Below, in pieces: positions 20,138-20,266 of a stretch of 64,000 nt of DNA. Made by a program: the position numbers and the translations under genes. The DNA is from a virus. Position 1 is the stretch's first letter. Every line of letters starts with the position of its first letter. The stretch lies in UHGV virus genome UHGV-0229283, one strand, 5' to 3'. The notes beneath the pieces were generated by a model. That model was given only the letters and a program-made list of their open reading frames with translations. It searched no databases and had not been told where the DNA came from.

Positions 20138-20266
20138 AGTTTGAAATGAGAGAGATACGGGTTCGACTCCCGTTCTTGCTGGCCCGGCTCGCGTAGTGGC
20201 ACAGGGCGATAGCTTAAATGGACGAAAGTTCTCTCGTTTCAAATCTAAACCAAAAGGAGAACGAAA

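Follow-up and report, generated by a model that had tools for sequence, protein, structure and literature searches.

YrlA (Y RNA-like A, RF02553) is a tRNA-mimicking Y RNA of Salmonella, mycobacteria and some phages, and has been likened to a circularly permuted tRNA (PMC4201824; PDB 6CU1, bioRxiv 10.1101/312249). A UA linker is among its named conserved features (bioRxiv 10.1101/312249), its Ro-binding motif is GNCGAAN0-1G, and the YrlA of M. smegmatis is cut by RNase P and receives a CCA (PMC4201824). A synthetic circularly permuted tRNA-Leu that mimics an anticodon-nicked tRNA is a ligand of RtcR, which activates the RNA-repair operon, and also a substrate of RtcB (Chen & Wolin 2023, PMC10159003). 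Small non-tRNA genes also lie among phage tRNA genes, as do RNA I, III, IV, RNA1 and RNA2 of T5 and the element described here. T4 species 1 and 2 are likewise stable RNAs in a phage tRNA cluster.

In the present study we analysed a 64,000-nucleotide stretch of virus DNA (UHGV virus genome UHGV-0229283; hereafter the window), in which positions 20140-20243 directly follow a tRNA gene. We consider it likely, with the release and protein binding proposed below included, that these positions form a separate gene for a tRNA-mimic small RNA which has the architecture of YrlA without its Ro60-binding module. The structure of the element is well supported, while we infer its function and also that it gives rise to a stable RNA of about 105 nt.

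Anatomy of the element and its neighbours

An earlier note on this DNA had drawn attention to a long-range stem behind a tRNA, and much of its description was borne out: ARAGORN calls tRNA-Lys(CTT) at 20062-20137, and TTTGAAATGAGAGAG (20140-20154) forms 15 contiguous pairs with TTCTCTCGTTTCAAA (20229-20243), including two G-U pairs (U20147-G20236 and G20154-U20229), around an insert of 74 nt. A 16th pair, G20139-U20244, is possible. The RBS of the downstream ORF (AAGGAG, 20254-20259) begins 10 nt past the stem, as had been stated, and the T-arm-like hairpin ACGGG-TTCGACT-CCCGT (20157-20173) is indeed perfect and fits the T-arm consensus of the tmRNA model. Some positions had to be shifted, in that the gap behind the tRNA is 2 nt (A20138 and G20139) rather than one, the hairpin lies 2 nt into the insert rather than at its start, and the ATG of the ORF is at 20266, not 20267. 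The claim that the insert lacks a 5' acceptor, D or anticodon arm stands for the anticodon loop; however, 20212-20229 form a canonical D arm and 20174-20209 a closed hairpin of acceptor type.

The element thus reads, in order, as a 13-bp end stem, AGAU, T arm, closed acceptor arm, UA, D arm and the conserved G26 position (Table 1). The upper two pairs of the 15-bp stem are not kept among relatives, which leaves a conserved end stem of 13 bp (20140-20152 with 20231-20243), and A20153 and G20154 are instead part of the invariant AGAU, the variable-loop equivalent. The 5' strand of the end stem is the counterpart of the 3' strand in an extended anticodon stem. In the window copy the acceptor-like (AS) arm is irregular, with 2 bp at its base (U20174-A20209 and C20175-G20208), a 6-nt bulge (20176-20181) and 4 bp of GCCC/GGGC (20182-20185 with 20204-20207) closing an 18-nt loop. 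All nucleotides of the tRNA elbow and core are present. The topology may be pictured as that of a tRNA with its acceptor end closed into a hairpin and its anticodon loop opened, in which the 5' and 3' ends of the RNA would pair into an extended anticodon-like stem bearing the variable loop, T arm, AS arm, U8-A9 and D arm. A cloverleaf-type fold is at most 3.6 kcal/mol less stable than the minimum-free-energy structure. The minimum-free-energy fold itself extends the T stem by 3 bp (AGA/UCU), an extension that is lineage-specific and absent from the copies of the T5-like phages, L023, L129, L163 and L152.

Table 1. Positions of the element, its parts and its neighbours in the window
Feature	Position	Strand	Basis
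Sigma-70-like promoter match TTGACG-17-TAGTAT, nearest upstream	19607-19635	+	consensus match only
tRNA-Lys(CUU), upstream neighbour	20062-20137	+	ARAGORN; Rfam tRNA 62.7 bits
Whole element, circularly permuted tRNA-like RNA, YrlA type, 104 nt	20140-20243	+	YrlA-model alignment; own model R1; RNAalifold
End stem, 5' strand UUUGAAAUGAGAG	20140-20152	+	pairs with 20231-20243
AGAU, equivalent of variable-loop positions 44, 45, 46, 48	20153-20156	+	conservation
T arm ACGGG / UUCGACU / CCCGU	20157-20173	+	tmRNA-model T-arm match; covariation
Closed acceptor-like (AS) arm	20174-20209	+	hairpin in every lineage
U8-A9 dinucleotide, joins AS arm to D arm	20210-20211	+	16 of 16 relatives, but pattern-required
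D arm GCUU / AAAUGGACGA / AAGU, with A14, A15, G18G19	20212-20229	+	YrlA-model alignment; RNAalifold; conservation
tRNA position 26 equivalent	20230	+	U in window; G in the other 15 of 16
End stem, 3' strand CUCUCGUUUCAAA	20231-20243	+	pairing and changes on both sides among relatives
Small ORF MFGFLLRMAGD..., downstream neighbour outside element	20266-20454	+	PVP-SE1 homologue

Comparative evidence and distribution

The fold of the window copy has a z-score of -2.85, 4 of 200 shuffled sequences fold equally well, and stems of at least 13 bp enclosing 60-100 nt occur at about eight places on the + strand of the window, so that the stem alone is not exceptional and the case for its reality lies in the comparison of its relatives. 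Comparison with related phages, which the earlier note had suggested, bears the pairing out, with compensatory changes both in an alignment of 16 relatives and in a set of five found by blastn only. In the former, 89.8% of the cells are paired, the covariation score amounts to 0.50, compared with 0.17 in shuffles (none of 500 reaches 0.50) and no more than 0.16 in slid controls, changes on both sides affect 8 of the 11 aligned end-stem pairs, and RNAalifold independently recovers the end stem, T stem and D stem. Membership of this wider set depended in part on an end-stem filter and on search patterns in which many T-arm and D-arm bases are fixed, and part of its conservation is therefore present by construction. 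The blastn-only set is free of this pattern bias, but small (n=5); here 98% of the cells are paired, eight pairs are altered on both sides, among them 7 of the 11 end-stem pairs, and none of 500 shuffles matches any of the five measures.

The individual parts differ in what they contribute. The end stem ranges from 6 to 16 bp among the relatives, 6 bp being its length in both L023 and the second copy of L163, and the two outer pairs of the T stem covary. The AS hairpin, of 4-8 bp, is found in all lineages, each with its own sequence, including the compensatory variants AGGC/GCCU in the T5-like phages and ACCC/GGGU in L138, and in some relatives it is perfect over 7-8 bp. The D stem is invariant except for G-U versus G-C at one pair (G10 with U25 or C25, eight relatives each) and is uninformative for that reason. 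The AGA of AGAU is invariant, partly because the search pattern demanded it, and the same demand holds for the invariant A14. Conserved though not imposed by the patterns are the UUCRANY T loop (15 of 16 relatives), the D-loop GG (15 of 16), U48 (14 of 16), G26, C27 and U28; in two of the 16, A15:U48 changes jointly to C15:A48.

Carriers of the element include Vequintavirinae, Klebsiella T5-like phages, a Xanthomonas jumbo phage and uncultured phage contigs. A blastn search with the element matched 60 phage records, three of which (Lactobacillus phages) match just a 22-nt T-arm stretch; the close relatives among them are 99.1% identical over the 115-nt query, which amounts to one difference. 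Further relatives lie on IMG/VR and metagenome contigs, where a loose pattern scan of IMG/VR was dominated by tandem tRNAs and was replaced by patterns anchored on AGAGA and GAGAT. Our own covariance model (R1) gives members 53-95 bits and the window copy 91 bits, and tandem tRNAs stay at or below about 42 bits. No blastn match to the element was found among 5,426 genomes of E. coli or 72,556 plasmids, the five hits of a pattern scan of 185,579 bacterial species genomes were chance matches or tandem tRNAs and included no member, and the L163 and L023 copies had no blastn match among isolate phages.

The element sits between tRNA-Tyr and tRNA-Asn in the Klebsiella T5-like phages and between tRNA-Phe and tRNA-Ser in L023, and on contig L163, which carries two diverged copies, it takes up precisely the space from tRNA-Gly to tRNA-Ile. 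In Salmonella phage NINP13076 the element precedes a promoter and a gene other than the ORF, and PVP-SE1 has the ORF directly after tRNA-Lys, with the element absent. Since the element occurs without the ORF, the ORF without the element, and the element flush between tRNAs, it is a separate RNA gene. It has also been exchanged between unrelated phages.

Comparison with YrlA and other tRNA-like RNAs

The Rfam model of YrlA aligns at exactly 20140-20243 (model positions 13-96 of 114), with a score of 15.5 bits and E = 0.51 in a 115-nt search, which is below the gathering threshold of 69 bits; an Rfam search of the 8.5 kb at 19000-27500 returned no YrlA match. The YrlA model does not reach the members L152, L159 and L138, and tandem tRNAs, like any other T arm with a D arm behind it, yield weak hits to it and to R1. 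Full-length YrlA hits were obtained for L179 and L173 (28.9 and 26.9 bits).

The element and YrlA agree in the order of their parts, which runs from the end stem over variable loop, T arm, a closed acceptor-like arm whose length varies, UA and D arm back to the end stem, and both lack an anticodon loop and a free CCA. The permuted tRNA-like domain of the element is in register and is enclosed by a stem of the 5' and 3' ends, and the nucleotides of the tertiary interactions that are conserved in YrlA, namely those of the T loop, the D-loop GG, the last variable-loop pyrimidine and the UA linker, are present. Unlike YrlA, the element has no Ro60-binding module, and the searches described below found no Ro60/TROVE gene beside it in the window phage, elsewhere in that genome or in any isolate phage that bears it; it lies inside tRNA arrays of virulent phages, in several of which it replaces a tRNA gene, and it has an invariant AGAU variable loop and G26-C27-U28 of its own. 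YrlA RNAs are further marked by Rsr binding in vivo and by modification through TruB and DusA. The likeness could be convergent. Our call is that the element is a Ro-independent variant of the YrlA-type tRNA mimic.

A standard tRNA (RF00005) is rejected, the anticodon loop being absent, the acceptor closed and no tRNA called by ARAGORN or Rfam. With tmRNA the element has the T arm and tRNA mimicry in common, and some bacteria have a tmRNA of permuted gene order; however, the element has none of the pseudoknots, the tag reading frame or the free, chargeable acceptor end of a tmRNA, the tmRNA and permuted tmRNA models (RF00023, RF04321) match the 17-nt T arm alone, at 11.6 and 7.6 bits, and ARAGORN finds no tmRNA. 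The T5 stable RNAs are, like the element, presumably co-transcribed with tRNAs and freed by tRNA-processing enzymes, and some are annotated as tRNA-like. RNA I and RNA III have no T arm, unlike the element, and T5 RNAs I, III, IV, 1, 2, 3 and X have no sequence or structure similarity to it, the best R1 hit in the T5 tRNA region, at 21.7 bits, falling in the range of tandem tRNAs. The synthetic permuted tRNA-Leu shares with the element an acceptor end closed by a loop and a transcript that starts and ends on the anticodon side. It keeps a normal 5-bp anticodon stem with half-loops, whereas the stem of the element is long and paired throughout. Good binding of the synthetic RNA to RtcR depends on a 2',3'-cyclic phosphate, whereas the ends of the element would probably be 5'-P/3'-OH if they are made by RNase E and RNase P.

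Proposed role, alternatives and implications

We propose that the element is co-transcribed with the phage tRNA genes, as suggested by promoter-like sites and by the finding of no terminator-like site on the + strand ahead of it, and that the enzymes of tRNA maturation would then free the RNA, as the gene layout suggests. The 5' end would be made by a cut just past the CCA of the upstream tRNA, so in the window it should result from 3' maturation of tRNA-Lys(CUU), and in relatives embedded in arrays the 3' end would be made by RNase P cutting at the next tRNA; RNase E or RNase P probably define the ends of the element as a by-product of maturing its neighbours. The window phage has no tRNA 3' of the element, which leaves the 3' end undefined there, and the RNA could remain joined to the mRNA of the ORF. 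The RNA would take an L-shaped fold, to which covariation and the conserved tertiary-pair nucleotides point and whose three-dimensional shape would follow that of the YrlA crystal structure. As it has no anticodon loop and no free CCA, it cannot decode. Most likely its tRNA body would engage a protein that binds tRNA, and the RNA would act as a decoy, competitor or cofactor.

Given that the window phage carries two RNA ligases (Rnl1-type and Rnl2-type), a CCA-adding enzyme and RlaP, a phage-host conflict over tRNA integrity is the most likely setting. Within it the element might be a counter-measure RNA, either a mimic of anticodon-nicked tRNA or the effector module of a YrlA without Ro, that competes for proteins acting on damaged tRNA or recruits phage repair, a more specific proposal that we regard as rather doubtful. 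Its host targets would be RtcR, RtcB, a partner of Rsr-YrlA (PNPase, for example) or immune nucleases directed at tRNA; in the other case, the enzymes recruited would be the ligase and CCA repair enzymes of the phage itself.

Several other explanations have to be weighed against a Ro-less tRNA mimic. That the element is a true Y RNA, whose end stem binds the host Ro60 orthologue Rsr and tethers it to an effector as Salmonella YrlA does, would agree with its architecture, and relatives with richer stems either adjoin a phage Ro60, as in L175 (a GAGAU...UAGCUUAA signature about 600 nt upstream of a Ro60 gene with TROVE and vWA_Ro60), or bear an exact GNCGAAN0-1G motif, as in the distant relative L179 (GUCGAAUG). 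The missed Rfam threshold does not decide the matter, as the Ro60-adjacent phage YrlAs of Catera (36.1 bits) and L175 (20.9 bits) also fall below 69 bits. Nevertheless, we consider a true Y RNA unlikely. The window copy has neither a GGUCCGA-like motif nor GNCGAAN0-1G, the latter being absent throughout 20120-20160, its 5' strand begins 2 nt from the tRNA and leaves no space for a Ro module, and the end-stem sequence varies freely in the family and is merely 6 bp long in some members. Pfam TROVE was not found in the 20 long ORFs scanned, which came from the window and from the other parts of the KB57 genome, the annotation of what is left of that genome names none, and neither Ro60 nor TROVE was found near L129, L163, L023 or L154. 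In addition, tblastn with the L175 Ro60 matched 372 phage records, the organism list of which names no phage of Klebsiella, Erwinia, Salmonella, Escherichia or Xanthomonas, the genera that the isolates with the element infect. [quoted passage not shown] It is nonetheless extremely improbable, as the anticodon loop is absent, the joined flanks yield no conserved 7-nt loop, the stem has 13 bp (6-16 bp in relatives), the irregular acceptor arm of the window copy should suit RNase P poorly, and neither ARAGORN nor the Rfam tRNA model calls anything at 20140-20243. Rejoined halves would have to give a 5-bp anticodon stem, a 7-nt loop and a 7-bp acceptor stem, and we reject a working permuted tRNA because the stem ends are built otherwise; in L023, for example, flanks of 3 nt and 9 nt give no 7-nt loop.

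The earlier note was right to suspect something derived from tRNA at a boundary of tRNA processing, but its three specific readings all fail. Two of them would make the element cis-acting, as an RNase III/E/P signal that separates tRNA from mRNA or as a 5' structure that stabilises or regulates the ORF, and the position of the window copy between tRNA and ORF, with the RBS 10 nt beyond, fits this; there is no terminator between the two genes, and a 5' stem-loop might protect the mRNA. We hold such a role to be quite unlikely. Element and ORF part company both ways (PVP-SE1 and NINP13076), several phages, such as the Klebsiella T5-like ones, have it flush between two tRNA genes and hence no mRNA to regulate, and the conserved positions are tRNA-core nucleotides rather than stem sequence or spacer. 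RNase III substrates typically have about two helical turns. The stem of the element ranges from 6 to 16 bp, and as the conserved helix has 13 bp in the window and just 6 bp in L023 and the second L163 copy, no cleavage mechanism specific for double strands can be common to the whole family. The third reading, a 3'-half remnant of a tRNA, is contradicted by the D arm, U8-A9 and closed acceptor arm and by compensatory changes across unrelated phage groups. A non-functional remnant might join the 3' part of one decayed tRNA (variable loop, T arm and acceptor 3' strand) to the 5' part of its neighbour (acceptor 5' strand and D arm). As an evolutionary origin this is plausible, since tandem tRNAs naturally yield a T arm, acceptor and D arm, and in L179 an extra hairpin bears the GUC anticodon of the adjoining tRNA-Asp. 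As an account of the present element it is highly unlikely: a remnant gives no reason for anticodon-stem halves or acceptor strands to stay complementary, and both are maintained in at least six phage lineages; the element is found across unrelated phage families with different hosts, and L163 carries two diverged copies on one contig.

A tRNA-mimic RNA gene of this kind would add a conserved and so far unannotated gene to Klebsiella, Erwinia and Salmonella phages that are under development for therapy, and it corrects the start of the neighbouring ORF, as several records extend the CDS into the RNA. Mimics of the YrlA type have so far been found by searching beside Ro60 genes, and their tRNA-like module is without a known partner. 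In phages without Ro60 this module stands alone, which makes the element a natural experiment for its Ro-independent use and a compact bait for finding its binding partner. In addition, the large tRNA sets and RNA-repair enzymes of the carriers point to conflict over tRNA cleavage, an active field of phage defence. Should the element indeed act as a counter-measure there, it would tilt the arms race over tRNA cleavage toward the phage and represent a new RNA-based class of anti-defence, spreading horizontally among the tRNA arrays of unrelated phages.

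A circularly permuted tRNA body behind tRNA-Lys

The source of the window is a Klebsiella phage (Vequintavirinae) of vB_KpnM_KB57/Mydo type, with 99-100% identity to such phages around the element, a 104-nt segment (20140-20243, + strand) following tRNA-Lys(CTT). The earlier note was right that its stem adjoins this tRNA, the gap being 2 nt (A20138, G20139) rather than 1. Uninterrupted pairing over 15 bp, with two G-U pairs, between TTTGAAATGAGAGAG (20140-20154) and TTCTCTCGTTTCAAA (20229-20243) was confirmed, as was the T-arm hairpin ACGGG-TTCGACT-CCCGT. A D arm, which the same note had found lacking, is present as a textbook U8-A9 plus D arm. 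The element is a circularly permuted tRNA body without an anticodon loop and without a free acceptor end.

Window coordinates of tRNA-Lys and of the parts of the element
Feature	Position	Detail
tRNA-Lys(CTT)	20062-20137	
End stem, one strand	20140-20152	3' strand of extended anticodon stem
A44-G45-A46-U48	20153-20156	tRNA numbering
T arm	20157-20173	
Acceptor-like arm	20174-20209	hairpin closed by loop
U8-A9	U20210-A20211	
D arm	20212-20229	GCUU-AAAUGGACGA-AAGU, with A14, A15, G18G19
tRNA position 26 equivalent	20230	
End stem, other strand	20231-20243	5' strand of anticodon stem

The stem alone is not beyond chance, because about eight sites on the + strand of the window have stems of at least 13 bp enclosing 60-100 nt; the same chance-control scan returned two further 16-bp long-range stems (6722-6818 and 43297-43400, +) enclosing about 65-72 nt. 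The fold is moderately better than those of shuffled sequences (z = -2.85; 4 of 200 equally good), and enforcing the four arms costs 3.6 kcal/mol relative to the minimum free energy. Elsewhere in the window, Rfam gave tRNA-like matches without an ARAGORN call at 22882-22960 (34.9 bits) and 23766-23837 (annotated as tRNA-Gly in Mydo), and at 24122-24191 ARAGORN reported a 'tRNA-???' whose anticodon has two bases.

Conservation and distribution among phages

Comparative analysis establishes that the predicted secondary structure and the nucleotides of the tRNA core are conserved. RNAalifold predicted the end stem, T stem and D stem from 16 sequences, a set partly picked by an end-stem filter and by patterns fixing many T-arm and D-arm bases, in which 89.8% of cells were paired and covariation was 0.50, versus 0.17 in shuffles (0 of 500 reached 0.50) and at most 0.16 with slid partners. 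Because of this selection, the pair count was repeated on five sequences found by blastn only: 98% were paired, both sides had changed in 7 of 11 end-stem pairs and in one T-stem pair, and none of five measures was reached by shuffles (0/500). The acceptor-like arm, though unalignable across lineages, is a hairpin of 4-8 bp in every one, with compensatory variants including GCCC/GGGC, AGGC/GCCU and ACCC/GGGU. Several features not imposed by the patterns also recur, namely the T loop UUCRANY and the D-loop GG (15/16 each), U48 (14/16, covarying with position 15), G26 and C27 (15/16 each) and U28 (16/16). Position 26 is U only in the window copy, the other 15 aligned members having G, and its closest relatives show a single-base difference across a 115-nt query. 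This U creates the 14th pair of the 15-bp stem. Of the pairing first proposed, a 13-bp helix is conserved and the top two pairs are not.

By blastn, the element was matched in 60 phage records; three Lactobacillus-phage records matched only in a 22-nt T-arm stretch. Carriers include most Mydovirus phages, Erwinia Henunavirus phages, the 368-kb Xanthomonas phage XbC2, Salmonella phage NINP13076 (with a longer query) and, more surprisingly, Klebsiella T5-like phages (72% identity). Scanning IMG/VR, JGI metagenomes and 185,579 bacterial species genomes for patterns brought in uncultured phage contigs as further carriers (L023, L129, L163, L159, L152, L144, L154, L138) and no bacterial chromosome; the large collections were entered through sequence patterns, and figures of family breadth hold for pattern-matched loci. 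The element was also unmatched in 5,426 E. coli genomes and 72,556 plasmids. With a covariance model trained on 16 non-redundant members, scores were 53-95 bits for members and no more than about 42 bits for tandem tRNAs, and a second, smaller copy was detected in L163. This 113-kb metagenomic phage contig has two diverged copies (3938-4029 and 11512-11588), each flush with tRNA genes.

A predicted separate gene within tRNA arrays

Judged by its context, which shows a placement like that of tRNA genes, the element is a predicted gene in its own right. In Klebsiella T5-like phages it lies 3 nt past tRNA-Tyr and about 10 nt ahead of tRNA-Asn, in L023 it is flanked by tRNA-Phe and tRNA-Ser, and in L163 the second copy occupies precisely the interval from tRNA-Gly to tRNA-Ile. 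The suggestion that it regulates the downstream ORF (ATG 20266 to 20454, +) is excluded, since the two occur independently: in phage PVP-SE1 tRNA-Lys and the ORF (MFGSLL...) are just 21 nt apart, without the element, and in NINP13076, L104 and L144 it is another gene, along with a TTGACA-N17-TATTAT promoter, that lies 3' of the element. An RNase III site as shared mechanism is argued against by end stems ranging from 6 to 16 bp across the family. A remnant of tRNA halves was likewise rejected, as complementarity is maintained between strands from different tRNAs, which is unexpected for a remnant; the order T arm, acceptor, D arm does, even so, suggest tandem tRNAs as the evolutionary origin.

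No record annotates the element, the 'tRNA-OTHER' of phage DP being tRNA-Lys. Several public records (Mydo, DP) place the start of the downstream CDS at ATG 20218, which falls within the RNA's D loop. In PVP-SE1 the homologue begins (MFG...) at the equivalent of 20266 with a good RBS, and the 16-codon extension (20218-20265) is probably an annotation artefact. A different tRNA-like RNA, whose acceptor-like 3' end closes with CCA and which has a T arm but no D or anticodon arm called by ARAGORN, occupies the slot after tRNA-Lys(CTT) in Escherichia phage 4MG (L169 8231-8340). In Erwinia phage pEp_SNUABM_01 (L004 1347-1502) it follows tRNA-Lys(CTT) directly 5' of the permuted element, and the locus thus collects tRNA-like RNAs.

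Relation to YrlA and possible role

YrlA, a tRNA-mimicking Y RNA, is defined as an RNA bound by Ro60 (Rsr) and encoded beside rsr, with a tRNA-like module and, close to the 5' end, a GNCGAAN0-1G motif (Chen et al., PMC4201824); most YrlAs have been likened to circularly permuted tRNAs in which the acceptor stem is closed and the anticodon loop missing (crystal-structure paper, bioRxiv 10.1101/312249). The element conforms to YrlA in its architectural criteria, and the Rfam model (RF02553) aligns exactly to 20140-20243 with its parts in register. However, it lacks the GNCGAAN0-1G motif, its stem sequence varies freely, it starts 2 nt past a tRNA, and its 15.5 bits fall below the gathering score of 69. 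This threshold is a weak criterion for phages, as the Ro60-adjacent YrlA of mycobacteriophage Catera scores just 36.1 bits; our covariance model had the same site as its sole match in the Catera locus (20.5 bits). The absence of Ro60 was established for the KB57 genome, where no TROVE protein was found in 20 long ORFs scanned (window and remainder) and none is annotated elsewhere. A phage Ro60 used as tblastn query matched 372 phage records (Mycobacterium, Streptomyces, Gordonia, Microbacterium, a few Vibrio and others), with no Klebsiella, Erwinia, Salmonella, Escherichia or Xanthomonas phage among the organisms listed.

A relaxed pattern, reduced to GAGAU, the T arm, UAGCUUAA and AGNGC, led to richer relatives in uncultured phages. 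Their closed acceptor hairpins are perfect over 7-8 bp, their end stems are long and bipartite, and an extra hairpin, the 'V' stem-loop of YrlA, stands ahead of AGAU. A YrlA-like RNA in L175 (5796-5906, -; only 20.9 bits with the Rfam model) lies about 600 nt upstream of a same-strand TROVE + vWA_Ro60 gene (3530-5203, -), and three tRNA genes stand between them on this 18.7-kb IMG/VR phage contig. In L179, GUCGAAUG matches GNCGAAN0-1G exactly, and L179 and L173 give full-length YrlA matches (28.9 and 26.9 bits). The extra hairpin of L179 (830-869, -) carries GUC in its 7-nt loop AUGUCAA. GUC is also the anticodon of the tRNA-Asp gene immediately upstream (887-960, -), a hint of tRNA duplication as the origin; the contig also has a manA RNA match (1870-2095, -; 42.1 bits, Rfam gathering score 55.2). 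In the 58.8-kb IMG/VR contig L172 (4647-4705, -, and flanks), another GCAAGAGAU and T arm come after the permuted unit, an arrangement resembling a tandem or two-domain form; ARAGORN called no tRNA across the 14.9-kb locus.

The RNA would be co-transcribed with the tRNAs, given promoter-like sites upstream at 19401 and 19607 and no terminator found in that region, and would be released by tRNA maturation; in E. coli, cuts are made by RNase E 1-3 nt past CCA and by RNase P at the next tRNA (PMC2190699). By analogy with the YrlA structure it would fold into an L shape and, unable to decode, present its tRNA body to a protein. Gene content points to a heavy investment of the phage in tRNA and RNA repair: it has an Rnl1-type ligase (PF09511; window 11684-12604, -) and, elsewhere in the KB57 genome, an Rnl2-type ligase (PF09414), a macro-domain 'phosphatase', an HD-domain CCA-adding enzyme and RlaP (PF10127) (L181 4436-5479 and 3418-4029, L171 14358-15605 and 17667-18737). 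The element shares its topology with a synthetic circularly permuted tRNA, a mimic of anticodon-nicked tRNA that is an RtcR ligand and RtcB substrate (Chen and Wolin, PMC10159003). These genes and this topology are the grounds for a role as decoy or cofactor in a conflict over tRNA cleavage, which we regard as quite unlikely.

No such element was described in the literature searched, and we rate this one as a Ro-independent YrlA-type tRNA mimic borne on phage tRNA arrays. Given the Ro60-linked RNA of L175, the motif in L179 and the full-length matches of L179 and L173, Ro60-linked phage YrlAs and the minimal, Ro-less element of the window stand at the two ends of a graded series, which may reflect either descent or convergence from tandem tRNAs.
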